From Bacilli bacterium (GTDB lineage: Bacteria; Bacillota_I; Bacilli_A; RF39; UBA660): a stretch of 64,000 nucleotides of DNA. The stretch is from positions 172,279-236,278 of the forward strand of contig JAFRIJ010000011.1 of NCBI GenBank assembly GCA_017432825.1. Direction: 5' to 3'. Positions 4,343-57,077 of the stretch are shown one piece after another; position 1 is the stretch's first letter, and every line of letters starts with the position of its first letter. The position numbers and the translations under genes were made by a program. A model generated the notes under the pieces. The model did not search any database, had not been told where the DNA came from, and saw only the letters and a list, made by a program, of their open reading frames with translations.

Positions 4343-5066
4343 GGAAAAAATTGTACAGTTTTTTAATAATATGTATTATCTATTAGTACAAGACTAATAA
4401 ATAATACAATTATTAAGAACTTTAATAAACATTATCAGTGTTTATTACAATCTCTTATCATTGTGAAGTTTTTCTTTCTTCATAAACAATTGTTTTACTT
4501 AGTGGAGATAAGAATTATATTTCTATAATTTTTCTTTCCTACTGAAGATAGTAAATATAAATTATTATATAATTATTATAGGATAATATTATAATTAATT
4601 AAATAAATTAAGTAATTATATATTATTGAAATAATTATATATACAAAGGGTAATAATAGATTTTATTATTTTTAGTAATAATTTATTATGAGAAATAGAT
4701 TATTATTTATAAATAAATTATAAGTAATAAGGTATTAAATAATAAATTATTGAATAATAAATTATTGTTACCATATAATATTATTTAGATAATAAATTAA
4801 ATAAATAATATTAAGATTTTATATTTTGTATATCTTCTATCTAAGTGTCTTTATTATATCACTAGCATTATATCATGTCAATACTTTTTTAAAAAAAAAT
4901 GTAAAAATTTGTTTATTTTTTTTCCTTTAGAAAACTGTTAGTTAAATAGAGTAAAAAAAGTGCATATTTTATAATAAATGTATTGATTTTCATTTTTTTT
5001 CGTGATATCTTTATGTTGTAAGCATAGATTATAAGTTGCTTATTTATAGATTATGGAGGTATTAAT

Positions 5067-5342: not shown

Positions 5343-5370
5343 AGAGACTTTAAAAAGTCTCTTTTATTTT
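5343..5370. terminator. Bidirectional terminator between the convergent hbs and S24-repressor genes (AGAGACTT/AAGTCTCT)
   Basis: Perfect 8-bp stem flanked by an A-run on one side and a T-run on the other. Confidence 0.55.
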
Positions 5371-6029
5371 ATCTCTCTATATATAGATACAACTTTCCCT
5401 AATATCATATCGTTTGAAATTACATTTACATTTATAGTAGGATATTTAGGATTTAATGCTTGTAATATTATTCCTTTAGGGTATCTATATAATCTTCTTA
5501 CTGATAATACGTTATTTTTGACTGCTATAATTATATCATCACCGTTTTTGTAGTCTTCTTGTTTTTGAAAATATAATTTATCATTTTTAAGATACACTGG
5601 CATCATAGAGTCATCTAGTGCTTTAATATATAATTCGCTTTTGTTTGTTTGAGGTTCATAGGCAGCATTTTTATATGTATTAATTATTTTTTCATTTTGA
5701 GGTGTTAAATTTTTTTCTTTTCTTAAATTTGTTACGTATTCTTTTATTATTTTTTTCTCTATTGTTTGTTGTTCTTCTTTTGATAAAGGAACTTCTTTAA
5801 AACTATCTGTATCAATATTAAAGATATTGCATATTTGTAATAGTATATCATATGGTATGTTTAATTTTCCTGTTTCATATTTATGTAATGTTTGTCTGTT
5901 TTTTTGATAGTTTAGTGCTTTGGCTAAATCCTCTAATGAATAATTGTATTTTTCTCTATTTTCTTTTATTATTCTACTTACTAATGGTTTTAATGAATCA
6001 CTTATTAGTTCTTGTTTTTTTGTCCTCAT
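5364..6029 (-). CDS. XRE-family HTH plus S24 peptidase (LexA/CI-like) autocleaving repressor
   Basis: N-terminal HTH_XRE (LEDLAKALNYQKNRQTLHKYETGK). C-terminal S24 with DDSMMP (Ser nucleophile) and a downstream Lys. RBS AGGAAG sits 8 nt before the ATG at 6029. Confidence 0.7.
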   Translation of the reverse strand: MRTKKQELISDSLKPLVSRIIKENREKYNYSLEDLAKALNYQKNRQTLHKYETGKLNIPYDILLQICNIFNIDTDSFKEVPLSKEEQQTIEKKIIKEYVTNLRKEKNLTPQNEKIINTYKNAAYEPQTNKSELYIKALDDSMMPVYLKNDKLYFQKQEDYKNGDDIIIAVKNNVLSVRRLYRYPKGIILQALNPKYPTINVNVISNDMILGKVVSIYREIK

Positions 6030-6042
6030 AACAATCACTTCC

Positions 6043-7917: not shown

Positions 7918-9162
7918 TTATATTTCATCAATAGGTATTAATCCTATTATATTTAAACTATTATTTATTACTATTTTTGAAGCATTAAACATATTTAATA
8001 TATTTATATTATTAAATGATTTTCTTTCAATAATTATATTTATTAAGCTAATTAGTTCTAATAAATAATCTATTATTATTTTTAAATCTTCTTTTTGATA
8101 TGATTTTATAATTATATCCTCAAAATCAGTTAATTTATTTATTATATTATAAATTATATTATTATTTGCATTATTATATACTTCTTTATTATTTTCTATT
8201 GATTTCATACATTTATTTATTTTGTTTATATATGTTGTTATTTTTATTAAATTTTTTTCTGACTCTTCATTAATTATACATTTATATCTAGTATAATTAA
8301 TATTTTCTTGAATTATATTTTTTCCCTCAATATTATTAATTTTTATTTTTTCTAGATCTAAGTTTAATAATTTAAGTGCCTCTTCGATACTTCTATCATT
8401 ATTATATATTACTATTTTTTCATAATTATTATATTTTTCATATATATGGGTTAAATATTTAGCAAAATCTGTATAATTTCCCATATTATCTATTAATTCT
8501 TTATTACATAATAATAGACTATTGTTATCTATATAACATATATTTTGATATCTTATTTTATTTAATAGATCTTCTATTTGATAACTATCTTCTATTTCTT
8601 TATTATCGGAGTACCTATCTATATATATTCTATATTTATCTAATAATATTTTTATTTCTTCTTTATCTATATTATTATTGTTTATATATATTTCTTTTTC
8701 TATATCGTAGCCGCAATAAGACAATATTCTAGAATAATTATCTATTGTTATTATAGTATTTAAGGATTTATTTATGTCTATTACTTCATCTATTATAGAT
8801 AATTCAATATTTATTTTTTTATTATTTCCTATATTGTTTTTTCCATAGTCTTTATCTTCTTTTAGTATTCTTTTTAGTCTTTCTATTAAGTATTCTTCTT
8901 TAATAGTTATTTTTATAGTATTATCTTCTAATAAATCTATATTTTTTATTATATTATTTCTTACTATTTTTTCTTTTATTCTATTAAATAATTCTTTACT
9001 ATTTATATAAACCATTTTATTTAATTCTTTAATTATATTTGTTAAATAGTATATTTCATTATTATCATTATAATACTTTAATTCTATTTCTTTATTAAAT
9101 TTGGTGGCTATTTCTTCTGATGTTTCTTTTAATAATTCTTTAAGAGTATTATTTATACTCAT
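7918..9162 (-). CDS. Hypothetical 414 aa Asn/Ile/Lys-rich low-complexity protein
   Basis: Long ORF ending 12 nt upstream of rpoE, suggesting an operon. No recognisable domain. Confidence 0.5.
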   Translation of the reverse strand: MSINNTLKELLKETSEEIATKFNKEIELKYYNDNNEIYYLTNIIKELNKMVYINSKELFNRIKEKIVRNNIIKNIDLLEDNTIKITIKEEYLIERLKRILKEDKDYGKNNIGNNKKINIELSIIDEVIDINKSLNTIITIDNYSRILSYCGYDIEKEIYINNNNIDKEEIKILLDKYRIYIDRYSDNKEIEDSYQIEDLLNKIRYQNICYIDNNSLLLCNKELIDNMGNYTDFAKYLTHIYEKYNNYEKIVIYNNDRSIEEALKLLNLDLEKIKINNIEGKNIIQENINYTRYKCIINEESEKNLIKITTYINKINKCMKSIENNKEVYNNANNNIIYNIINKLTDFEDIIIKSYQKEDLKIIIDYLLELISLINIIIERKSFNNINILNMFNASKIVINNSLNIIGLIPIDEI

Positions 9163-9660: not shown

Positions 9661-11622
9661 ATGAAAAGAAAAATAATTAATCTTATTATCATTTTATTAT
9701 CTAGTTTTTTTATATTTAATATTGGTTTGTATTTATATTGTTATATTACTCCTAAAGTTCCTCTTAAGAAAGTTAAATCTTATTATTTATATAATAATGA
9801 GGGTAATTTAATATTTAATGATAATAAGAATTGGATTGAGTTAGAAGATATAAGTAGATATTTAATAGACGCTACTATAGATATAGAAGATAAAAATTTT
9901 TATAATCATATGGGTTTTGATTATTTAAGAATATTAAAAGCTGCTATAAATAACATTAGAAATAAATCATTATCTGAAGGTGCTTCTACTATTTCTCAAC
10001 AATATGCTAGAAATTTATTTTTAAATTATGAAAAAACATGGTCTAGAAAGATAGATGAAGCATTAATGGCTGCTGAATTAGAAACTCATTATTCTAAGAA
10101 TGAAATATTAGAGGGATATTTAAATACTATAAATTATGGTGGAGTATATGGTATTGAAAATGCTAGTTGGTATTATTTTGGGCATAGTGCTAGTTCTTTA
10201 AATTTAGCCGAATCATCAATGTTAGCGGGTATTCCTCAATCTCCTTCTAATTATTCTCCTATTAGTAATCTTACCCTAGCTAAGAAAAGACAGGAAGTTG
10301 TATTAAAATCAATGTATAAAAATAATGATATTACATTAGATGAATTAAACACTTCTTTAAAAGAGAATCTTAGTTATATTGGAAAATTAAATCAAGGAAA
10401 TCTTAATAATGTTTTATATTTTAGAGATGCTGTTATTGAAGAATTAAATCATATTAATTCAATTCCTAAATCTGTAATAGATACGGGTGGATTAAAAATA
10501 TATACTACTTTAGATGAAAAAGCTCAAAAAAGTTTAGAAGATAGTGCTAATGATTATTTAGATATATCCTCTGATTTGGAATTTGCTGGTATGATGGTTA
10601 ATCCTGTTGATGGTGGAGTTCTTGCTATGATAGGTGGGAAGAATTATTCTATTAGTCAATACAATAGAGCAATTAAGGCTAAGAGACAAGTTGGATCTAT
10701 AATGAAACCATTATTATATTATTCTGCTTTAGAAAATGGATTTACTTCTGCTTCTACTTTTACGAGTGAAAAGACTACATTTAACTTTTCTAATAATAAA
10801 TCATATACTCCGAGTAACTATAATAATAAATATGCTAATGGTTCTATTACTATGGGAGCAGCTATTGCTTATTCTGATAATATTTATGCTGTTAAAACTA
10901 ATTTATTTATGGGAGAAAGCAATTTAATTAATATTGGTAAAAGATTAGGGATTAATAGTAAATTATCTCCTAATCCTTCTTTAGCGCTTGGTACTAGTGA
11001 AATATCTATGAAAGAGATGATTGATGCTTATAGTTCTTTTGCTAATGATGGATATAAGATTAATAGTCATTTTATTGATAAAATAGAAGATAGTAATGGT
11101 AATATTATTTATGAATATAATAAGATAAATATAGATAGTATTCTTAATCCTAATTTAACTTTTATTTTAAGTGAAATGTTGACTTATACATATGATACTT
11201 CATTCATTGATTATAATTATCCTACTCTTATTAGTTTATTACCTAAGATATCAAATAAGTATGCTTTAAAAAGTGGTACTACGGATACTGATAAATGGAT
11301 AATTGGATATAATAAGAATGCTGTTTTAGCATTATGGAATGGATATGATGACAATAAAAAAATTGATAGTTTAGAGGGAAACTATCAAAAAGATATTTGG
11401 ATTGATACAATGGAAAAATATTTAGATGATAAAGATAATTCCTGGTATGATATTCCTAAAAATGTTGTAGGGGTGTTATTAAATCCTATAAATGGTAATG
11501 TTGCTACTAAAGAAGATAAAAAATCTAAAATATTTTATTTTTTAAAAGGAACAGAACCTTCTATTAATAACAATGATTTTGAAGCTGTATTTAAGGAAGA
11601 AAATAATATTATTAAAGAATAA
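9661..11622 (+). CDS. Class A penicillin-binding protein (GT51 transglycosylase plus transpeptidase)
   Basis: N-terminal TM. GT51 motifs EDKNFYNHMG, GASTISQQ, RKIDE and KNEILEGYLN. Transpeptidase motifs S-I-M-K, SDN and KSGTT. Confidence 0.85.
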   Translation: MKRKIINLIIILLSSFFIFNIGLYLYCYITPKVPLKKVKSYYLYNNEGNLIFNDNKNWIELEDISRYLIDATIDIEDKNFYNHMGFDYLRILKAAINNIRNKSLSEGASTISQQYARNLFLNYEKTWSRKIDEALMAAELETHYSKNEILEGYLNTINYGGVYGIENASWYYFGHSASSLNLAESSMLAGIPQSPSNYSPISNLTLAKKRQEVVLKSMYKNNDITLDELNTSLKENLSYIGKLNQGNLNNVLYFRDAVIEELNHINSIPKSVIDTGGLKIYTTLDEKAQKSLEDSANDYLDISSDLEFAGMMVNPVDGGVLAMIGGKNYSISQYNRAIKAKRQVGSIMKPLLYYSALENGFTSASTFTSEKTTFNFSNNKSYTPSNYNNKYANGSITMGAAIAYSDNIYAVKTNLFMGESNLINIGKRLGINSKLSPNPSLALGTSEISMKEMIDAYSSFANDGYKINSHFIDKIEDSNGNIIYEYNKINIDSILNPNLTFILSEMLTYTYDTSFIDYNYPTLISLLPKISNKYALKSGTTDTDKWIIGYNKNAVLALWNGYDDNKKIDSLEGNYQKDIWIDTMEKYLDDKDNSWYDIPKNVVGVLLNPINGNVATKEDKKSKIFYFLKGTEPSINNNDFEAVFKEENNIIKE

Positions 11623-11623
11623 A

Positions 11624-11650
11624 AGAAGTAGAAATTATTTTTCTACTTCT
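11624..11650. terminator. Bidirectional terminator (11-bp perfect stem AGAAGTAGAAA/TTTCTACTTCT) shared by the convergent PBP and parB-like genes
   Basis: Perfect 11-bp inverted repeat with a 5-nt loop that contains the parB-like stop codon; A/T runs flank it. Confidence 0.6.
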
Positions 11651-12942
11651 ATATTTATTTTATAACTTGTGGCTTCTTCATTTTCTGTAACGTTAATTTT
11701 ATATCCTAATAATTCCATATTTGTAGTAATACTCTTTATCATATTAATAATTGGTGTTATATCTTTGCTTTCTGTATTATTTAAATTTGGAATACTATTT
11801 AAATCAAATTCTGGATTTAATGTTTCGTTAGTTGGTATTGGATTTTCTACATTTATATTTGGATTGATTGATGGTACTTCATTAGGTACTTCCATATTAT
11901 TTAGTCCTGACTCTATTGTTGTTTGTTCTTGATAATTATTTTGAAATGATAGCGGATTTGTCATTGATGGTACCTCATTATAATTACTTTGTTCTACTGA
12001 AGTAGATGATGTTTGATCTGTATTATTAAATGTTGGTATGTTTACTTCAGGACTTGGTGTTGGATCTACATTATTAAATGTTGGTATGTTTGCTTCAGGG
12101 CTTGGTATTGGATTTGCATTATTAAATGCTGGAATATTGGTTTCAGGTGTTGGTTCACTAAAATTTGGAATTGGAGCAGGTTCTACATTAATATTTGGTT
12201 GTATATTATTTAAATCTTGATTTGGTATTTGTTGATTAAGTCCATTCACTATGTTATTTGATTCTTCCATTGATGGAAAAAATCTTCCTCCAAATGCTGG
12301 CTCTGTATTCATTCCTTGTCCTAAATTTTGTTCTAATCCATTATTAATATTGTTATCCATACTTTGATTTTCATTCATTTCTATTCTTTCCCTTCTTATT
12401 TCATTTTTATCTAATTCTGATAAATTAATTATGTCATTATTTATCAAGTTATTATTTACTTCTGTTTCATTGTTTAATGAATTTTTTAATATTTGGTTGC
12501 TATTATTATTATGTTTCTTTATTAATTTTAGTTTTGAATAGATTCTGTCAATTGGAATACCAAGTGTTATACTTAATTTTTCAACATTAGTATTAGGGTA
12601 GGAGATAGCTTTATCATATAATGATGCTTCTTCTTTTCCTGTCAATTCTTTTCTCTGAACATTATTTGTTATAATCATATTTATTGCTTGTTCATCAGTT
12701 ATGTTTTCAACTATAACTGGTACTTTATCCATACCTATACTTTTAGCAGCGTTATACCTTCTATTTCCAATTATTATTTCATATTTATCATCTTTTTTTC
12801 TTACAATTAGTGGTTCTAATATTCCTAATTGTTTTATTGAATTTGCTAGATTATCAATGTTATCATTTTGAAATTCTAGATGAGCATGAAATTCACTGGG
12901 TATTAATTCTGCTATAGGTATATACGTAATTGTATTACCCAT
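11635..12942 (-). CDS. Divergent ParB/Noc-like protein: ParB N-terminal domain plus HTH plus a long Pro/Asn-rich repetitive tail
   Basis: ParB N-domain (ILEPLIVRKKDDKYEIIIGNRRYNAAKSIGMDKVPVIVE) carries GNRR in place of GERR. An HTH follows. About 200 aa of low-complexity repeats (NIPAFNNANPIPSPEANIPTFNNVDPTPSPEVNIPTFNN). Position next to rsmG is as in Clostridia. Confidence 0.7.
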   Translation of the reverse strand: MGNTITYIPIAELIPSEFHAHLEFQNDNIDNLANSIKQLGILEPLIVRKKDDKYEIIIGNRRYNAAKSIGMDKVPVIVENITDEQAINMIITNNVQRKELTGKEEASLYDKAISYPNTNVEKLSITLGIPIDRIYSKLKLIKKHNNNSNQILKNSLNNETEVNNNLINNDIINLSELDKNEIRRERIEMNENQSMDNNINNGLEQNLGQGMNTEPAFGGRFFPSMEESNNIVNGLNQQIPNQDLNNIQPNINVEPAPIPNFSEPTPETNIPAFNNANPIPSPEANIPTFNNVDPTPSPEVNIPTFNNTDQTSSTSVEQSNYNEVPSMTNPLSFQNNYQEQTTIESGLNNMEVPNEVPSINPNINVENPIPTNETLNPEFDLNSIPNLNNTESKDITPIINMIKSITTNMELLGYKINVTENEEATSYKINIEVEK

Positions 12943-13024
12943 AATATCCCTCTATCCTTCTACTATATATAGAATACACTAAAATTTCTATTTTTTCAAT
13001 AAAAAAAGAAAAAAATGTTTATAT

Positions 13025-13726
13025 TTACAAATTTTTCTTTTTTATTTCATTATATTTTCTTGGATATATTAAATTAGTAGGAGATGTTTTTTTATATTTT
13101 ATTAATGTTCTATAACTATTTTCAATGGGTAAATTAAATTCAATTCTATCTATTTCTTTAATATTTAATTTTTTTTCATAGTTATTAATTCCTATTAATT
13201 CTTCTTTTATATTACCTTTCATAGCAATATAATATCCATTAACTTTTACTAATGGTATAGAATACTCAAGTAGGTGTTTTAGTGGTGCTACTGCACGTGA
13301 TGTTACTATATCATATTTTTCTCTTACATTTTTACTGTATATTTCTGCTCTTTTATTAATAACTTCTATTTCTTTTAGTTTTAATTTTTCTATTACTATA
13401 TTTAAGAAATTGCATTTTTTTAGTGTTGAATCTATTAATGTGACTTTTAAATTAGGATACATTATTTTTAATACTATTCCTGGGAAACCTGCTCCTGTAC
13501 CTATATCACATAGTGCTTGATTATTCAATTTTATTATTTTTAATATAGTTAGAGAATCATAAAAATGTTTTAAGTATACATCTTCTTTATTAGTAATAGA
13601 GGTAAGATTATATTTTTTATTTTCTTCTATTAATAAATTATAATAATTTTCTAGTTGTTCTAATTGATAATCTGTTATATTAATATCTATTTTTTTTAAT
13701 TCTTCAATAAATAATTCTTTATTCAT
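13025..13726 (-). CDS. rsmG: 16S rRNA (guanine527-N7)-methyltransferase
   Basis: SAM motif DIGTGAGFPGIVLKI; about 233 aa; classic position downstream of mnmG. Confidence 0.9.
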   Translation of the reverse strand: MNKELFIEELKKIDINITDYQLEQLENYYNLLIEENKKYNLTSITNKEDVYLKHFYDSLTILKIIKLNNQALCDIGTGAGFPGIVLKIMYPNLKVTLIDSTLKKCNFLNIVIEKLKLKEIEVINKRAEIYSKNVREKYDIVTSRAVAPLKHLLEYSIPLVKVNGYYIAMKGNIKEELIGINNYEKKLNIKEIDRIEFNLPIENSYRTLIKYKKTSPTNLIYPRKYNEIKKKNL

Positions 13727-15619: not shown

Positions 15620-16972
15620 CTATTTTCCTAAACAGAATCTAGAGAATAAGTCGTCTAATAGTTCATCTGTATAGGTTTCTCCTATAATTTCTCCTAATAA
15701 TTCCCAGGCATTTTTAATATTTAATTCTACTATATCTATTGGTTCATTATTATTAATGGAATTAATACTTTCTTCTATTTTGAATAATGATTTTTTTAAT
15801 AAAGATATACTTCTAGCATCACTTAAGTAAGTTAAATCTTCTGTTTGTAATTCTCCTAAATTAAATAATTTAATTATTCTTTCTTTTAATTCATCTATTC
15901 CTTTATTGTTTACTATGCTTATTTTTATTATATCTTTTGGTAATTTAGAATAGTCTAGTTTGTTATCTAAATCTATTTTATTAGATATTATTATATGTTT
16001 TTTTTCTTTAATAATATTTATTAATTCTTTATCTTCTTTTGTAAGTTCTTCATTATTATTTAATATCATTATAATTAAATCAGAAGTATTAATTATTTCT
16101 TTGCTTTTTTCTACACCTAATTTTTCTACTATATTAGTTGTTTCTCTTATTCCTGCAGTATCTGTTATATTTAATAGTATTCCATTTAAATTAATTGTTC
16201 CTTCTACTATATCTCTTGTTGTTCCTTCTATATCTGTTACTATTGCTTTTTCTTCTTCTAATAAATTATTGAGTAGGCTACTTTTACCTACATTAGGTCT
16301 ACCTATTATTCCTACTTTTAATCCTTCTTTTATAACTTTAGAATCTTCTGATTTTTTTATAGTTTTATTTATTTTTTCTTTTATATTTAATAATTTTGGT
16401 AATAATTTTTCATTTGTTACTATTTCTATATCATCATATTCTGGATAATCTATATTTACTTCTATATTGGATATTATTTCTACTATATCTTTTCTTAAAT
16501 CTTTAATTAAATTAGATACTTTGCCACTTATTTGATTTATAGATAGTTTTCTTGCTTTATCTGATTTAGAAGATATTATGTTCATAATTCCATCTGCTTC
16601 TATTAAATCTATTCTTCCATTTAGGAATGCTCTTTTTGTAAATTCTCCAGGCTCTGCTAATCTTGCTCCATTTAATAGTAATAATTCTAGTATTTTATTA
16701 GTAGGCGCTATACCTCCATGACTATTTATTTCTACTATATCTTCTCTTGTAAATGTTTTAGGACTTTTCATTACAGATACTAATACTTCATCTATTATTT
16801 CTTCATTATTAATGATATATCCATAATGTATTGTGTGAGTATCTACTTTGGATAGATCTTTTCCTTTAAATATTTTATTTACTATATTTATACTATCATT
16901 TCCACTTACTCTTATTATAGATATTGCTCCAACTCCTTGAGCAGTAGATATTGCTGCTATAGTATCATCCAT
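15620..16972 (-). CDS. mnmE: tRNA modification GTPase MnmE (TrmE)
   Basis: N-terminal MDDTIAAISTAQGVGAISIIRVSG. G-domain GRPNVGKSSLLN...DTAG. C-terminal CLGK. AAGGAGG RBS sits 8 nt before the ATG at 16972; the ORF track extends upstream through the RBS. Confidence 0.95.
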   Translation of the reverse strand: MDDTIAAISTAQGVGAISIIRVSGNDSINIVNKIFKGKDLSKVDTHTIHYGYIINNEEIIDEVLVSVMKSPKTFTREDIVEINSHGGIAPTNKILELLLLNGARLAEPGEFTKRAFLNGRIDLIEADGIMNIISSKSDKARKLSINQISGKVSNLIKDLRKDIVEIISNIEVNIDYPEYDDIEIVTNEKLLPKLLNIKEKINKTIKKSEDSKVIKEGLKVGIIGRPNVGKSSLLNNLLEEEKAIVTDIEGTTRDIVEGTINLNGILLNITDTAGIRETTNIVEKLGVEKSKEIINTSDLIIMILNNNEELTKEDKELINIIKEKKHIIISNKIDLDNKLDYSKLPKDIIKISIVNNKGIDELKERIIKLFNLGELQTEDLTYLSDARSISLLKKSLFKIEESINSINNNEPIDIVELNIKNAWELLGEIIGETYTDELLDDLFSRFCLGK

Positions 16973-17060
16973 AATATTACCTCCTTTTTCTTCAATTATT
17001 TTAACATACATTTATTTATAATAAAAGTATTTGTTAACAAAAAAAGAACTATTGAGTTCT

Positions 17061-19910: not shown

Positions 19911-21665
19911 ATGTTTAAGGAAATAACTGCTATAAGTAAAAATTATGCTATGGTTAGGATAGATGGTACTGTTAGTGATGACTTACTTAATATGAATGTT
20001 ATATTTGAAGATGGTACTAAAAAGATTCTAGGTGAAGTTGAAGAAGTTGATAAAGATCAACTAAAAATTAGTTTTTTGGGTGAATTTATTAATGGTAAAT
20101 TTTTAGGTGGTATTATTAGAAAACCTAGTTTAACTTCTAAAATTAGAATGATTAATCAAGAAGAATTAGGTGAGTTAGTTGGAGATAATGATGATAAGAG
20201 TATGGTTTTAGGTTTATCTCCTTTATATAATAACTATCCTATTAAAATAAATATTGATGAGATGTGGAGTAATCATAGTGCTATATTTGGTAATACTGGT
20301 AGTGGTAAAACATACGGTGTATCTAGATATGTACAAAATTTATTTACTATACCTGATAAAATTCCTTTTAACAGTAACATATTTATATTTAATAATACTG
20401 ATGAATATGATAATGCTTTTAAGAGTATAAATAATTATAATATTAATTTTAATTATAAGATGTATTCAATTAATGGAGATGATAATAGTTGTATTAGACT
20501 TCCATTATGGTTATTATCAGTAGATGATTATGCTAATTTATTGGATGTTACTGAATATTCTCAACTTGCTATAATTGAAAAGATGTTGAGTTTAGTATCT
20601 GCTTTTGCTAAGAAAGATGAAGAATCTAAAAGGTATCAAAATCATTTAATTGCTAGTGCTATTACTTCTGTTTTATATACTAATCAAACTCCTGGTAGAA
20701 TTAGAGATCAGATTTTTCAAATATTGGAAAGCTGTCATACTGAAGAATTAAATTTAGATGTTGAAGTCCCTGGGGTTGGATATACTAGACAATTTAGAAA
20801 ATGCTTTGAAATTGATAGTAAAGGTGAATTTGCAGAAAGAGTTTTAATAGCTGAATATATTCAGAAATTTGTTGATAACAATACTATTTGGAATGAAGAT
20901 TATGTTCCTATATATTTTACTTTATCTGATTTGGAAGTTGCTTTAAACTTTACTTTAATATCTGAGGGATTACTTCTTAATGAAAAGTCTTATTCAGAAG
21001 CTATGGCTCTTAAAGTAAGACTTCATACTTTAAATAATAGTAGTTATAAGAAAATATTTGATTATCCTAGATTTGTTAATATGAATGAATTTATTACTGA
21101 TATTATAATGGTTGGTCAAAATAAAAGAGCGCAAATTATTAATTTTGTTTTAGAAGATATTGACGATAGATTTGCTAAGGCTATTGTTAAGGTATACTGT
21201 AGAATTGTATTTAAATTTAGTAAATCTCTTAAAGAAAGAGGAGCAATGCCTATTCATTTAATGTTAGAAGAAGCTCATAGATATGTACAAAGAGATAATG
21301 ATGTTAATATTTTGGGATATAATATGTTTGAACGAATTGCTAAGGAAGGTAGAAAATTTGGCTTAGTATTAGATTTAATTACTCAAAGACCCACTGAACT
21401 ATCTGAAGCTGTTATATCACAGTGTAGTAACTTTTTAATATTTAAGATTACCCATCCTACTGATTTGGAATATATTAGAAAGATGGTACCTAATATTAGT
21501 GCTGATGTTATTGAAAAGCAAAAAGCTCTTCAATCTGGTACTTGTGTTGCTTTTGGTAGAATGATGAAAATTCCTATGATTGTTAAGATGGAATTACCTA
21601 ATCCTGAGCCTAGAAGTTCTAATGCATCTATCTATAATAAGTGGATGATTGATTGGAAGAAATAA
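19911..21665 (+). CDS. HerA/FtsK-superfamily (DUF87-like) P-loop ATPase, 584 aa, located between rpmH and oriC-dnaA
   Basis: Strong RBS GAGGAGGAG. N-terminal beta-rich domain. Walker A GNTGSGKTYG and Walker B IHLMLEEAHRY. C-terminal LITQRPTELSEAVISQCSNFLIFKITHPTDLEYI is typical of HerA-like ATPases. Confidence 0.8.
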   Translation: MFKEITAISKNYAMVRIDGTVSDDLLNMNVIFEDGTKKILGEVEEVDKDQLKISFLGEFINGKFLGGIIRKPSLTSKIRMINQEELGELVGDNDDKSMVLGLSPLYNNYPIKINIDEMWSNHSAIFGNTGSGKTYGVSRYVQNLFTIPDKIPFNSNIFIFNNTDEYDNAFKSINNYNINFNYKMYSINGDDNSCIRLPLWLLSVDDYANLLDVTEYSQLAIIEKMLSLVSAFAKKDEESKRYQNHLIASAITSVLYTNQTPGRIRDQIFQILESCHTEELNLDVEVPGVGYTRQFRKCFEIDSKGEFAERVLIAEYIQKFVDNNTIWNEDYVPIYFTLSDLEVALNFTLISEGLLLNEKSYSEAMALKVRLHTLNNSSYKKIFDYPRFVNMNEFITDIIMVGQNKRAQIINFVLEDIDDRFAKAIVKVYCRIVFKFSKSLKERGAMPIHLMLEEAHRYVQRDNDVNILGYNMFERIAKEGRKFGLVLDLITQRPTELSEAVISQCSNFLIFKITHPTDLEYIRKMVPNISADVIEKQKALQSGTCVAFGRMMKIPMIVKMELPNPEPRSSNASIYNKWMIDWKK

Positions 21666-21996: not shown

Positions 21997-23385
21997 GTGG
22001 ATATTAATTCTTTATGGAATAATTTTTTAGATAAAATTAAAGAGAATATCTCTTCACTTTCATACGAAACATGGTTTAAGGATACTAAACTAGTTAATCT
22101 TAATGATAATACTGCTACTGTTATTGTTCCTATGCCTTTTCATAAAAAGCATTTGGTAGAAAATTATAAAAATATTATTGAAGATACTTTTTGTAATATT
22201 ACTGGAACTAAATTTAATTTTAATTTTTTATTAGAAGAGGAATGGAATTTAGAGAAGGATTCTATTGAAGAAATTATTTCTTCTTCTAGTTTAAGTAATA
22301 ATAATGATTTAGGCGGTGTGGTTAATCAATCTTATGAAGATGCTAATTTAAATCCTGATTATTCTTTTACTAACTTTATTGTAGGAAACTCTAATAGATT
22401 TGCATATACTGCTTCTATGGCTGTAGCAGAAAAACCTGGTAAAGCTTATAATCCATTGTTTTTATATGGGAAAAGTGGTTTAGGTAAAACTCATCTTATG
22501 CATTCTATTGGTAATTATATTATAGAGAATAGTAATTTAAGAGTTTTATATATTTCAAGTGATAAGTTTGTTAATGATTTTATTAATGCTGTTAGAAGTA
22601 ATGATAAAGATAATTTTGATAAAATTGATTCATTTAAAAATAAATATCGTAATATCGATGTGTTAATGATTGATGATATTCAATTTTTAGGTAATGCTAC
22701 TAAGGGTCAAGAGGAATTTTTTCATACTTTTAATGAATTATATAATTGTAATAAACAGATTGTTATTGCATCTGATAGATCTGTTGATGATTTAAAGATG
22801 TTGGAAAATAGGCTTCTTACTAGGTTTAATTGGGGACTTACTGCTAATATTACTCCTCCTGATTTTGAGCTAAGAATGAATATTATAAGAAAAAAGATAG
22901 CCCATCAAGAGTCTGCTAAAGATGTTCCAGATGAGGTTATAGAATATATTGCTAATAACTTTGCTTCTGATGTTCGTAAGCTGGAGGGTGCTATTACTAG
23001 AGTATTTGCTTACGCTCTTATGATGAATAAGGGTATTGTTGATTTAGATACTGCAGTAGATGCTTTAAAAGATCAGTTAACCGACAGAAGTGTTTATAAA
23101 AACGATATAAATAGAATTCAGACTGTTGTTTGTGATTATTTTAAAATTGATTTAGATGACATGAAGGGTAAAAAAAGGAGTCAAAATATTAATTATCCTA
23201 GACAAGTTGCTATATATTTATGTAGAACTATGGCTAATGAGTCATTTCCTAAGATTGGTACACACTTTGGTGGTAGAGATCATTCTACCATTATGAGTTC
23301 ATATAATAAAATAGAAAGAGATTTAAAAAATAATGAACAATTAAAAGTTGTAATTAATGATTTAAAAAAGATGTTATCAACATAG
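21997..23385 (+). CDS. dnaA: Chromosomal replication initiator protein DnaA
   Basis: AAA+ motifs GKSGLGKTHL and IDDIQFLG; C-terminal DNA-binding domain. GTG start 7 nt after a GGAGG RBS. Confidence 0.97.
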   Translation: MDINSLWNNFLDKIKENISSLSYETWFKDTKLVNLNDNTATVIVPMPFHKKHLVENYKNIIEDTFCNITGTKFNFNFLLEEEWNLEKDSIEEIISSSSLSNNNDLGGVVNQSYEDANLNPDYSFTNFIVGNSNRFAYTASMAVAEKPGKAYNPLFLYGKSGLGKTHLMHSIGNYIIENSNLRVLYISSDKFVNDFINAVRSNDKDNFDKIDSFKNKYRNIDVLMIDDIQFLGNATKGQEEFFHTFNELYNCNKQIVIASDRSVDDLKMLENRLLTRFNWGLTANITPPDFELRMNIIRKKIAHQESAKDVPDEVIEYIANNFASDVRKLEGAITRVFAYALMMNKGIVDLDTAVDALKDQLTDRSVYKNDINRIQTVVCDYFKIDLDDMKGKKRSQNINYPRQVAIYLCRTMANESFPKIGTHFGGRDHSTIMSSYNKIERDLKNNEQLKVVINDLKKMLST

Positions 23386-31039: not shown

Positions 31040-31625
31040 ATAAATAATATAATGTTTCACGTGGAACATTATATTTTTTTTATACTTTTATTTTTATATA
31101 TAAAATATGTAATATTAATATTTAATATATATTATGCAATTCATTATGTTTCACGTGAAACTATATTTTAATTAAATTCTAAAATATTCTTTTTATAATT
31201 AATAATTTTAATTAACTCTTTACTTTTTATATTTATTATTTTAATTTGATATATTTTCTGTATAATGTTTCACGTGAAACATTAAAATTTTTTATTTAAT
31301 TTTTTTATACTTTTTATTTTTATATAAAATATGTAATATTAATATTTAATATATATATTATGCGATTCATTATGTTTTACGTGGAACTATATTTTAATTC
31401 AATTCTAAAATATTCTTTTTATAATTAATAATTTGTAATTAACTCTTTACTTTTTATGTTTATTATTTTAATTTGATATATTTTCTGTATAATGTTTCAC
31501 GTGGAACATTAAAATTTTTTTATACTTTTTATTTTTATATAAAATATGTAATATTAATATTTAATATATATTATGCGATTCATTATGTTTCACGTGAAAC
31601 TATAAAATTATATTACTATTTTAAT
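31040..31625. repeat. Tandem direct repeat, about 213-227 bp unit with about 2.7 copies. Each unit carries two long palindromes built on CACGTG. X-type is TAATGTTTCACGTGRAACATTA (perfect 22-bp copy at 31263-31284). Y-type is ATGTTTCACGTGAAAC.
   Basis: X cores at 31052-31069, 31265-31282 and 31492-31509. Y cores at 31146-31161, 31372-31387 and 31585-31600. Units align with under 10% divergence. A TATAAT hexamer directly abuts each X palindrome. Confidence 0.8.
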
Positions 31626-55274: not shown

Positions 55275-55408
55275 AGTAATGCCTCCTTTTTGGATAATAT
55301 TATAACAAAATATTTATTTAATAGCAAAACAAATATTTATTTCTTTTTACTTTATTTTTCCTTTAAAATTTGATACAATGTATCTTGTAGGAGATAAAGG
55401 TGAGTTTG

Positions 55409-56224
55409 ATGGGAAAAATAATTGCAATAGTAAACCAAAAAGGTGGAGTAGGTAAAACTACCACTAGTATTAATTTAGCAGCATCTTTGGGTATTTTAAA
55501 GAAGAAAGTATTACTAGTTGATTTAGATCCTCAAGGAAATGCTACTACAGGTATTGGTATTGATAAGGGAAGTTTAAATAGTAGTGTTTATGAAGTTATG
55601 ATTATGAAAACTAGTATTGAAGATGCAATTATTAAGACCAAAAGTAAAAATGTTAGTATTTTACCAGCTTATTTAAATTTAGCTGGTGTGGATATGGAAT
55701 TAATTGAATTAGAAAAGCAATATCATGCTGAAGGTAAGAGATTAAATAGGGTTTTAAGACTTAAAGAGGAGTTATCTAAGGTAAAAGATAGGTATGATTT
55801 TATTTTAATTGATTGTCCTCCTTCTTTGGGAATTTTAACTACAAATGCATTAGGTGCTAGTGATAGTGTACTTATACCTGTTCAATGTGAATATTTTGCA
55901 TTAGAGGGAATAATGCAATTAATTAATACAATTATGTTGGCTCAAAAGAAAGTTAATCCTAATTTGGAAATTGAAGGAGTTTTACTTACTATGCTTACTA
56001 CTAATACAAATTTGGGTTTAGAAGTTGTTGAAAGTATAAAAGGATTTTTTAAAGAAAGAGTTTATGATACTATAATTCCTAGACTTATTAGATTGGCGGA
56101 GGCACCATCTCATGGTAAACCTATATTAGAGTATGAACCTAGAAGTAGAGGGACTTTGGCATATTTAAATTTAGCTAAGGAGGTAATAGAAAAGAATGGA
56201 ACAAAAAAAGAAAGCATTGGGTAA
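55409..56224 (+). CDS. soj: ParA-family chromosome partitioning ATPase Soj
   Basis: Sequence [19 protein letters not shown] with the deviant Walker A; 272 aa. RBS GGAG precedes it. Confidence 0.9.
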
Positions 56225-57077
56225 GGGGTTAGAACAATTATTTAGTAGTGAGGTTTTGGATTTTGATTCTTTTGAAGATAGAATAATGGAGAATGCTAAG
56301 GAATCTGATATTTTTGAAATTCCTGTTAATGAAGTTAGGCCTAATCCTTTTCAGCCTAGAAAAAAATTTGATAATGAGTCTTTAGAAGAATTAGCTACTT
56401 CAATTAAAAATTATGGTGTGTTTCAACCAATAATTGTTAAGAAAAGTATTAAAGGATATGATTTGGTAGCGGGAGAAAGAAGACTAAGGGCATCTAAAAT
56501 GGCTGGATTATCAAATATTCCTGCTATAATTAAAGATTTTAACGATGAAGAAATGAGAGAAATTGCATTGTTAGAAAATCTTCAAAGAGAGGATTTGTCT
56601 GCAGTTGAGTTAGCGTGGGCTTATAAGGGTATTATTGATAGTTTGCATATCACGCAAGATGACCTTGCTTCTAGATTGGGAAAAAGCAGGAGTAGCGTTA
56701 CAAATATTTTAGGTTTATTAAGACTTCCTTCAGAAGTTCAGAATATGGTTATTGATAATAAAATTTCTATGGGACATGCTAGAGTTTTGTCTAAAATAGA
56801 AGATGTTAATAAAATAAAAGAATTATCTAAGAAGGTTATTAATGATAATTTGAGTGTTAGGGATTTAGAGGATTTGTCTAATTCTTCAGAAATAAAGAAA
56901 AAAGTTCCTATTAAAAGAACTGTTAAAAATAATTCTGATTATTTATATATTGAGAATAGAATGAAAGAGATATTAGGAACAAAAGTTAAGATTGATAGTA
57001 AGAAGATAGAAATTCATTATAGTTCTTCTGACGATTTAACTAGAATCTTAGATATGTTAAATATAAAAGTTGATTAA
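56196..57077 (+). CDS. spo0J: ParB-family chromosome partitioning protein Spo0J
   Basis: ParB box with canonical [15 protein letters not shown] (GERRxRA) and an HTH; translationally coupled to soj with a 29-nt overlap. Confidence 0.9.

Follow-up and report, generated by a model that had tools for sequence, protein, structure and literature searches.

The 64,000-nucleotide stretch of DNA analysed here (the window; contig JAFRIJ010000011.1 of assembly GCA_017432825.1) comes from an uncultured clade of gut Bacilli with 24% GC, and in it the gene directly downstream of rsmG (13025–13726), mnmG and mnmE encodes a 435-amino-acid protein that begins as a member of the ParB family and then runs into a long region rich in asparagine and proline. 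The locus raises the question of what such a protein, with altered catalytic motifs, can still do and which of its parts are being kept. The explanation that we favour overall, with a moderate degree of confidence, is that the gene is an orthologue of noc in which the N-terminal clamp for cytidine triphosphate (CTP) has become relaxed, and in which a conserved C-terminal part (Met189 to the stop codon, referred to below as the C-module) would be translated from a start of its own. Coordinates of all features are collected in Table 1.

The gene has the position of noc: it follows rsmG (gidB) directly in the origin region, with dnaA at 21997; noc occupies the same place in Bacillus, and in this window soj-spo0J lies across the origin. 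The best NCBIfam model for the protein is nucleoid_noc (TIGR04285), matched in two stretches at 122 bits, far below the curated cut-off of 315, which is not reached by the canonical orthologue L013 either (283 bits). By sequence, the best solved structures are those of Geobacillus Noc (7NG0/7NFU), followed by B. subtilis Spo0J (6SDK). BLASTP is not decisive (89 bits against Noc and 92 against Spo0J, compared to 184 and 179 for L013), and the assignment to Noc therefore rests on synteny and on the C-terminal domain. On these grounds we read the gene as the syntenic noc orthologue of an uncultured, AT-rich clade of gut Bacilli.

In an AlphaFold2 model built with a 41-sequence family alignment, residues 396–434 form a helix and two strands with a predicted local confidence (pLDDT) of 75–85. 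A profile alignment (hhalign) pairs the family with the C-terminal domain of Bacillus Noc from end to end (44 columns, E 3.8e-5), and the last 46 residues of the protein match, weakly, positions 210–255 of TIGR04285 (model length 255). A hidden Markov model (HMM) of the family C-termini (consensus ...KDIxPVxNMIKxL....LGYKxNIxE....SYKIxIEVEK) matches real Noc proteins exactly at their C-terminus with 10–12 bits, more than any of 2000 shuffles (maximum 7.7), and finds no match in the window's ParB. The real Noc proteins for these comparisons were retrieved with a B. subtilis Noc query, with 99% identity to the B. subtilis entry. The 247-residue C-module as a whole has no match in NCBIfam, where only its last 46 residues match the end of the Noc model. 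By these alignments the end module is a Noc C-terminal domain, which presumably dimerises.

The N-terminal part is likewise recognisable. Residues 1–147 are folded with confidence (pLDDT mostly 80–94), and the sole Pfam domain in the protein is ParB_N (PF02195, 83.7 bits against a cut-off of 26.3), which places it in the ParB/Srx superfamily. In Foldseek the model is closest to Geobacillus Noc (7NFU, E 2.4e-12, 34–35% identity), with matches to Noc and ParB structures at E 1e-10 to 1e-12. In its nucleotide-binding site, the GERRxRA of ParB and Noc CTPases, with its hydrolysis glutamate, is replaced by GNRRYNA, the Gln and Arg of box I are missing from SEFHAH, and the Glu-Asn of box III has become Asn-Asn (NNVQR). 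All three hydrolysis positions are thus replaced (Q by H19, E by N60, E by N93). Among CTP-binding residues R61, R62, N94, R97, G40 and P44 are kept, and in alignment with the CTP-binding class of positions in C. crescentus ParB (class I: R60, R103, R104, R139, N136, G79, S74; PMC8367383) six of seven are retained, the equivalent of R60 being His (H21). In B. subtilis ParB, E78Q (the GERR glutamate) and E111Q (box III) abolish CTP hydrolysis and still permit CTP binding, N-gate closure and DNA loading (PMC8494293); in C. crescentus ParB, Q58A and E135A bind CTP and do not hydrolyse it, and E102A is "clamp-locked" with no hydrolysis (PMC8367383). Noc requires R89 and N121 for CTP binding, and hydrolysis is dispensable for its clamp closure and membrane binding (PMC8429893); the equivalents of both residues are kept here. 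The N-domain may therefore still bind CTP, but would be unable to hydrolyse it.

The same three positions that were mutated in hydrolysis-dead ParB are naturally substituted in this protein, which keeps most of the CTP-binding residues. However, the mutants are laboratory point mutants of complete ParB, whereas the substitutions here are fixed in a subclade and are combined with the box I Arg to His change and a truncated DNA-binding domain. PadC of M. xanthus (PDB 6RYK) also has a domain of the ParB/Srx fold and is a structural match to the model; it binds CTP without noticeable hydrolysis and is an adaptor rather than a partition protein (PMC8367383). It differs in architecture, genomic context and partners, having neither a Noc C-terminal domain nor a disordered linker.

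The DNA-binding domain of ParB and Noc continues beyond the helix-turn-helix (ISERHARxLL and later helices, as in L013), whereas in the studied protein it ends after the recognition helix and low-complexity sequence follows; Pfam HTH_ParB (PF17762), which marks a complete ParB-type DNA-binding domain, has no match in the 435 residues. A search of the 64 kb for Noc-binding sites (ATTTCCCGGGAAAT-like, up to 3 mismatches) found none compared to 2.2 expected by chance, in a window that is small and for a protein whose recognition helix differs. Since the helix differs, it is possible that the N-terminal part recognises some other DNA site. A scan of the window for recurrent GC-containing palindromes returned parS only.

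How this state arose can be followed among relatives. The protein search yielded 78, all from metagenomes or metagenome-assembled genomes (MAGs) labelled Bacilli, and of 18 loci found by scanning species-representative genomes, 17 belong to the family. At these 17 loci, wherever the contig reaches far enough, tblastn with the window's neighbours recovers the order dnaA, yidC, jag, mnmE, mnmG, rsmG, the studied gene, a convergent PBP1 gene and an open reading frame (ORF) with a DALR domain. Across clade genomes MnmG is 78–89% identical compared to 28–50% for the studied protein, which thus evolves much faster than its neighbours. The DALR ORF (7918–9162, 414 amino acids) is syntenic across the clade and likewise fast-evolving (25–49% identity); its sole match is a weak C-terminal DALR anticodon-binding domain, as if left over from an arginyl-tRNA synthetase. 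Only 128 proteins among 1.84 billion representatives match a profile of the C-module, and the C-module family is small and clade-restricted.

Within this family the N-terminal part occurs in graded states. In the canonical state (L013 and L014) box I reads IPNRLQPR, box II GERR and box III ENIQR, and the DNA-binding domain is complete (ISERHARSLL...). The group that includes the query has [QH].H, GNRR and [ND]N[IV]QR in the three boxes and only the first helix-turn-helix, and in the degenerate state, represented by many members, boxes I and III are lost, box II reads GNKR or G.[DE]K, and the helix-turn-helix is gone. Box II was tallied in 112 members in which the RFF motif described below and the C-terminal domain occur together: it is GNRR in 49, GNKR in 25, GKKR in 6, another G..K or G..R form in 14 and GERR in 1, while 13 have no GxRR-like motif and 5 consist of the C-module only, with the N-terminal part absent. 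In this set the stretch ahead of the conserved internal Met shows a continuous range of lengths, 0 to 211 residues (about 257 in L013), and several matches to the C-module profile begin exactly at that Met. GNRR and the helix-turn-helix are invariant or nearly so within the GNRR subgroup.

An earlier note on this DNA, made from the sequence of the window, had described a degenerate protein of the ParB/Noc family with a changed CTP motif, and this holds (GNRR at residues 59–62 compared to GERR in B. subtilis ParB and Noc). It had added that orthologues with an intact GERR would imply a simple point variant; such orthologues exist (L013 and L014), but GNRR is fixed across a subclade (49 representatives) and is not a simple point variant. 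The changes in boxes I and III, the apparent internal start and the clade-wide decay of the N-terminal half had gone unmentioned. Judged from the family alignment, GNRR is a fixed subclade state and one step on a path of loss. A further case comes from a MAG of the Acutalibacteraceae (Clostridia; L022, 4217–5209), in which a ParB paralogue adjacent to rsmG has GNRR for GERR, ends in a Noc-like C-terminus and stands ahead of parA-parB; Noc-position paralogues that have lost the GERR glutamate may therefore not be confined to this clade.

In several relatives the N-terminal part is broken or gone. Nonsense mutations occur in L023 (AGA to TGA at codon 186), L027 (GAA changed to TAA, five codons ahead of the ATG) and L030 (a stop about 40 codons upstream). 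L026 has a separate 174-amino-acid ParB_N gene, the TGA of which overlaps the ATG of a 312-amino-acid C-terminal gene (ATGA), and L032 has a frameshift between the two parts. In L028, rsmG is followed by 345 bp with stops in all frames, then by GAAAGGGA, an ATG and a 293-amino-acid C-terminal gene, and in P0222 the ParB_N core has been deleted in frame. In every variant with a disrupted or missing N-terminal part the ORF of the C-module is open over 249–354 codons, which in a 24%-GC genome is unlikely to occur by chance without selection, and it is intact in more than 100 representative clusters. As judged by this comparison of sequences, the N-terminal part has been lost several times independently, and selection retains the C-module as the ParB part degenerates.

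A genetic code in which TGA specifies Trp was considered for the L023 stop and rejected, long housekeeping ORFs being intact under table 11 with no in-frame TGA. In the window's 24 long ORFs TGA is never a stop (TAA 21, TAG 3) and never occurs in frame, and Arg is encoded almost only by AGA. Two further loci, L029 and L031, were not counted as losses of the N-terminal part, as the sequence upstream is GC-rich and unrelated and the contigs are probably chimeric. In L029 (1–190) the GC-rich junction lies immediately upstream of the internal string that resembles a Shine–Dalgarno (SD) sequence and in L031 (1–135) about 40 nt further upstream, and the two breakpoints fall in much the same part of the gene.

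This string, AGG-GA or AAG-GA, is found in each of the 17 orthologous genes that were analysed, 12 nt ahead of Met189. The arginine four codons upstream of Met189 is encoded by AGG followed by GA in 15 of the 15 orthologues that have Arg there, compared to a background of 11% AGG among the Arg codons of window genes (53/467); the two canonical orthologues, which have Lys, use AAG-GA, the rarer Lys codon, and so an RGGA string at fixed distance from the ATG survives the change of amino acid. The predicted duplex with the anti-SD sequence (-5.6 kcal/mol) ranks 11th among the 262 Met codons that are internal and in frame; the mean for true starts of the window is -6.0. Gene callers begin separate ORFs at the equivalent of Met189 in L023, L026, L027, L028 and L030. 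An in-frame start with a ribosome-binding site, conserved at the nucleotide level, is the pattern of a nested product, and the C-module is probably also translated on its own. The outgroup P0060 has the motif as KFFNFLEDE with no Met or clear start upstream of it, from which the internal start seems to be specific to the window's clade. A promoter scan of 11500–13200 gave no more matches than shuffled sequence and is uninformative on an internal promoter.

It is possible, though in our judgement unlikely, that there is a single product with no internal initiation. The string and ATG would then reflect a protein constraint on E-R-[DE]..M, or an SD-like pause at a domain boundary, and the split genes would be sequencing errors or recent pseudogenes. 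The surrounding peptide (DIINLSEL..ERED..MNN) is indeed conserved at the amino-acid level, each split variant is represented by one metagenomic contig, and the spacing of 10–12 nt between SD-like string and ATG is at the long end of real starts in the window. However, a protein constraint does not explain the choice of the rare AGG in every Arg-bearing orthologue, or of the rarer AAG that preserves RGGA where the residue is Lys. Nor are errors expected to leave the C-terminal ORF open after six unlike disruptions (three nonsense, two frameshift or split, one loss of the N-terminal part), or to retain the SD-like string and ATG in L028, where the N-terminal region has become non-coding.

Most of residues 149–390 is predicted to be disordered (pLDDT <50, with a weak helix at 177–187), and Asn and Pro make up 22% and 16% of residues 233–392. 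The tandem repeat in it encodes three copies of NIP[AT]FNN..P.PSPE and is a local amplification of a family-wide short motif, [ILVM]P.[FY][DEN], which occurs 79 times in the disordered regions of the 112 members compared to 5.5 +/- 2.3 times in shuffles, reversed and shifted control patterns being depleted. The query has four copies (IPNFSE, IPAFNN and IPTFNN twice), three of which form the tandem repeat. Conserved islands in the same region are DIINLSEL..E.ERED..MNN (query 170–191), P[AT]FGGRFFPSLEDEPTNMN (query 215–231) and LIDLTD, with LIDLT present in 105 of the 112. One relative, P0284 (750 amino acids), has a degenerate N-terminal part, the RFF motif and LIDLTG, and then an unrelated domain of about 470 amino acids in place of the disordered region and Noc C-terminal domain; it is either a fusion or a chimera.

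Much of what the earlier note had said of this region stands. It had described a Pro/Asn-rich tail of approximately 200 amino acids, which is low in complexity and repeat-bearing as claimed, although longer (about 240 amino acids); the DNA repeats it placed at about 12000–12300 are real but run only from 11995 to 12154; and the structured module it saw at the end of the protein is the helix-strand-strand domain described above. Its suspicion of hypervariability is supported by the sister lineage L023, which at the DNA level is about 90% identical in the C-terminal domain and the flanks compared to 47–65% in the central disordered region (residues 266–360). Assembly error, which it had raised as a possible source of the repeats, does not explain them, as an identical 435-amino-acid protein is present on at least 14 contigs, and the four of these that were fetched derive from four different samples. 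The region is not a tail, however, but an expanded linker between the truncated DNA-binding domain and the Noc-type C-terminal domain.

The island around residues 215–228 may bear on the membrane. Real Noc proteins begin MKHxFSRFFGLGEKE; membrane binding requires each of F5, F8 and F9, and the peptide can be moved to a different protein (PMC4331003). The amphipathic N-terminal targeting sequence of Noc (about 10 amino acids, MKHxFSRFFGL) is absent here, the protein starting MGNTITYIPI directly at ParB_N, and no such sequence was found in the family members examined, canonical GERR orthologues included. All members examined have instead, after the DNA-binding domain, the motif F-G-G-R-F-F-P-S-L-E-D-E, a phenylalanine-rich and acidic string that resembles FSRFFGLGEKE and has a hydrophobic moment of 0.49–0.50 compared to 0.43 for the Noc targeting sequence. 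We regard a relocated Noc-type membrane-targeting sequence as a lead suggested by these likenesses. The RFF motif may also resemble the membrane-targeting sequences of SepF and MinD, and the IP.F peptides may resemble the FtsZ C-terminal peptide (DIP.FLR) or beta-clamp-binding motifs.

Taken together with Noc of B. subtilis and Geobacillus (TIGR04285; PDB 7NFU, 7OL9), the protein shares the position after rsmG near oriC, the fold of the N-domain, for which Noc is the best match by structure and sequence, a C-terminal domain that aligns from end to end, and a motif like the targeting sequence. It differs in having that motif behind the DNA-binding domain and no N-terminal targeting helix, GNRR, NNVQR and H19 at the hydrolysis positions, a DNA-binding domain cut short, a disordered insert of about 240 amino acids, an apparent internal start and a score far under the family cut-off, and in that no sequence like a Noc-binding site was found in its 64-kb window with up to 3 mismatches.

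On this basis residues 1–188 would be a relaxed ParB/Noc CTP clamp which, if it still binds CTP, would not hydrolyse it and would recycle poorly, with altered or weakened DNA recognition. The C-module (Met189 to Lys435) would be made separately from the embedded SD-like string and ATG, and would present in order the F..RFF-acidic motif, LIDLTD, an acidic disordered spacer with a variable number of [ILVM]P.[FY][DEN] motifs, and the Noc-type C-terminal domain. It could form dimers and provide a multivalent scaffold at the membrane or the divisome, with an activity independent of DNA binding; we infer this location from its motifs. In this genome the full-length form may still tie that activity to DNA. 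By comparison of orthologues, decay in the clade has proceeded from GERR to GNRR, to GNKR or G..K, then through loss of the helix-turn-helix and nonsense or frameshift mutation to deletion.

Several points weigh against this proposal. The internal start is proposed from sequence features; each disrupted variant is known from one metagenomic contig, beyond the pattern that they share, and assembly errors or dead alleles could account for some. The box I Arg, whose C. crescentus ParB counterpart (R60) is required to bind CTP, is His here, and CTP binding may have been lost rather than kept. In the window no DNA site emerged as a candidate for the N-terminal part. This part is 50–60% identical within the GNRR subgroup and so is not junk in this genome. 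As for the targeting motif, hhalign pairs GRFFPSMEES with SRFFGIGEKE of Noc only weakly (P = 0.008, probability 5%), the motif is flanked by Pro, contains Gly-Gly and has no predicted helix in the AlphaFold2 model, and its acidic context would disfavour binding to anionic lipids.

A bolder form of the proposal, which we consider improbable, joins all of these leads: the C-module would be an autonomous, DNA-independent regulator of division or the envelope derived from Noc, equipped with the nested start and relocated targeting motif, its [IV]P.[F] arrays (NIPTFNN, NIPAFNN) perhaps competing for FtsZ anchors, and the clamp a discarded vestige. In a related and equally speculative view, two tandem noc copies would have fused to give the gene, the internal SD-like string and ATG being the start of the second.

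Very doubtful is the view of the earlier note that this is a nucleoid-binding ParB paralogue standing alone in place of soj-spo0J, with a disordered extension through which it would phase-separate or make surface contacts on the chromosome. In its favour, the protein does have a well-folded ParB N-domain and helix-turn-helix, and its disordered region is long and of low complexity. The gene does not stand alone, however, the same window having a canonical parA-parB pair and an array of six parS sites. Moreover, the DNA-binding domain is truncated, several relatives retain the disordered region and C-terminal domain without it, and the disordered region is acidic with essentially no basic residues: in the query, residues 213–392 include 22 acidic residues, with the Arg of the conserved GRFF as the only basic one, and in the 112 members K+R has a median of 0.6% and D+E of 10.7%, a poor fit to co-condensation with DNA and one that makes a DNA-condensing role unlikely. 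The studied protein and chromosomal ParB/Spo0J have common ancestry in their ParB_N domain and helix-turn-helix, but the former lacks the ParA-stimulating peptide at the N-terminus (LGKGL in the window's ParB; pattern LG[KR]GL), its gene is not beside parA, and its C-terminal domain is of the Noc type, for which the family HMM passes over the window's ParB. That the gene is a functionless relic, noc in decay with a neutral, slippage-prone low-complexity region, is suggested by the stepwise degeneration of the ParB part and by hypervariability with slippage-type repeats, yet is barely credible given the strong conservation or enrichment of the C-terminal domain and of the FGGRFFPSLEDE, LIDLT and [ILVM]P.[FY][DEN] motifs, with the ORF intact in so many clusters and with GNRR and the helix-turn-helix hardly varying in their subgroup.

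Table 1. Features of the studied gene and related partition elements (window coordinates; residues refer to the 435-amino-acid protein)
Feature	Coordinates	Strand	Basis
Full-length ORF, 435 amino acids, ParB-family gene in Noc position	11635..12942	-	domain matches, synteny
GAGGGA, SD-like, 4 nt upstream of annotated ATG; putative ribosome-binding site of the gene	12947..12952	-	read from sequence
Intrinsic terminator hairpin, bidirectional, common to gene and convergent PBP1 gene	11624..11650	.	
ParB N-terminal (CTPase-fold) domain, residues 4-96	12655..12933	-	Pfam PF02195, E 9.9e-24
Box I, PSEFHAHLEF; Gln and Arg of canonical NPYQPR both His (H19, H21)	12871..12900	-	alignment to 6SDK and 7NFU; family alignment
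Box II, GNRR (G59 N60 R61 R62) instead of GERR	12757..12768	-	alignment; 49 family representatives
Box III, NNVQR (93-97) instead of ENLQR; Glu to Asn, Asn and Arg kept	12652..12666	-	alignment
Helix-turn-helix, residues 120-147	12502..12585	-	AlphaFold2 helices 120-127, 131-147
DIINLSEL peptide, residues 170-177, last conserved element of N-terminal part	12412..12435	-	D170 and L177 invariant; I171, I172, L174 >=90% (41 sequences)
Internal SD-like AGA AGG GAA (R183-E185), AGG at -15..-13 from internal ATG	12388..12396	-	codon use, duplex energy
Conserved internal ATG (Met189), proposed start of C-terminal product	12376..12378	-	>=90% conserved
Nested ORF, conserved C-module, Met189 to stop, 247 amino acids	11635..12378	-	profile; intact in disrupted relatives
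Conserved motif PAFGGRFFPSMEES, residues 215-228, family consensus P[AT]FGGRFFPSLEDEPTNMN	12259..12300	-	P215, F217, G218, P223 invariant
Disordered acidic Asn/Pro/Gln-rich linker, residues 149-390	11773..12498	-	AlphaFold2 pLDDT <50 for most
Tandem 48-nt (16-amino-acid) repeat, about 3 copies, each with NIP[AT]FNN	11995..12154	-	2.6-2.9 copies, 84-88% matches
Noc-type C-terminal domain, residues 393-435, helix-strand-strand, presumed dimerisation	11638..11766	-	AlphaFold2, hhalign, HMM
Six parS sites (TGTTNCACGTGAAACA, 0-2 mismatches, best strand), gap between gyrA and signal recognition particle (SRP) RNA	31053..31601	.	
Canonical parA (KGGVGKTT)	55400-56224	+	six-frame motif scan
Canonical parB: N-terminal LGKGL, GERR, ENLQRE, full DNA-binding domain, C-terminal domain	56196-57077	+	six-frame motif scan

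The parS scan gave 13 strand-hits compared to 0.83 expected. The six sites crowd an intergenic stretch of about 550 bp, in direct repeats of about 215–227 bp with two sites each, an unusually dense centromere array. As dnaA, dnaN, gyrB and gyrA lie between the studied gene, parS and parAB, the window spans oriC. The parA-parB operon is about 33 kb beyond dnaA, on the side away from rsmG-noc; in Bacillus and Clostridia (e.g. L022) parA-parB directly follows noc. Between rpmH-rnpA-yidC and dnaA, a gene at 19911–21665 encodes a 584-amino-acid HerA/DUF87 (FtsK-like) ATPase, which is found in the same place in contig L001 of the same species. The listed start of mnmE (15620–17011) is probably 13 codons early, the Met at codon 14 having by far the strongest ribosome-binding site of the window (-13.1 kcal/mol) and gene callers giving a product of 450 amino acids. 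A PGK RNA motif (Rfam RF03040, 75.5 bits) is located at 4425–4519 on the reverse strand, and near it, on the same strand, is a gene for a LexA-like repressor (HTH_3 and Peptidase_S24, 5364–6038).

The gene is therefore best regarded as a variant of a known family and as more than a degenerate paralogue, the mechanistic steps being those that we infer. Its current label, "ParB/RepB/Spo0J family partition protein", is misleading at least for members without a helix-turn-helix or ParB domain. The GNRR subgroup constitutes a natural experiment, with fixed substitutions the same as in engineered "clamp-locked" ParB, in which the use of a hydrolysis-dead CTP switch can be tested. In this clade evolution has dropped the CTPase, the DNA-binding domain and finally the clamp, and has kept the C-terminal domain, F..RFF and the acidic scaffold. 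This pattern of loss suggests that the parts of Noc other than the clamp have an activity of their own, and it bears on what Noc does to block division in addition to holding DNA at the membrane.

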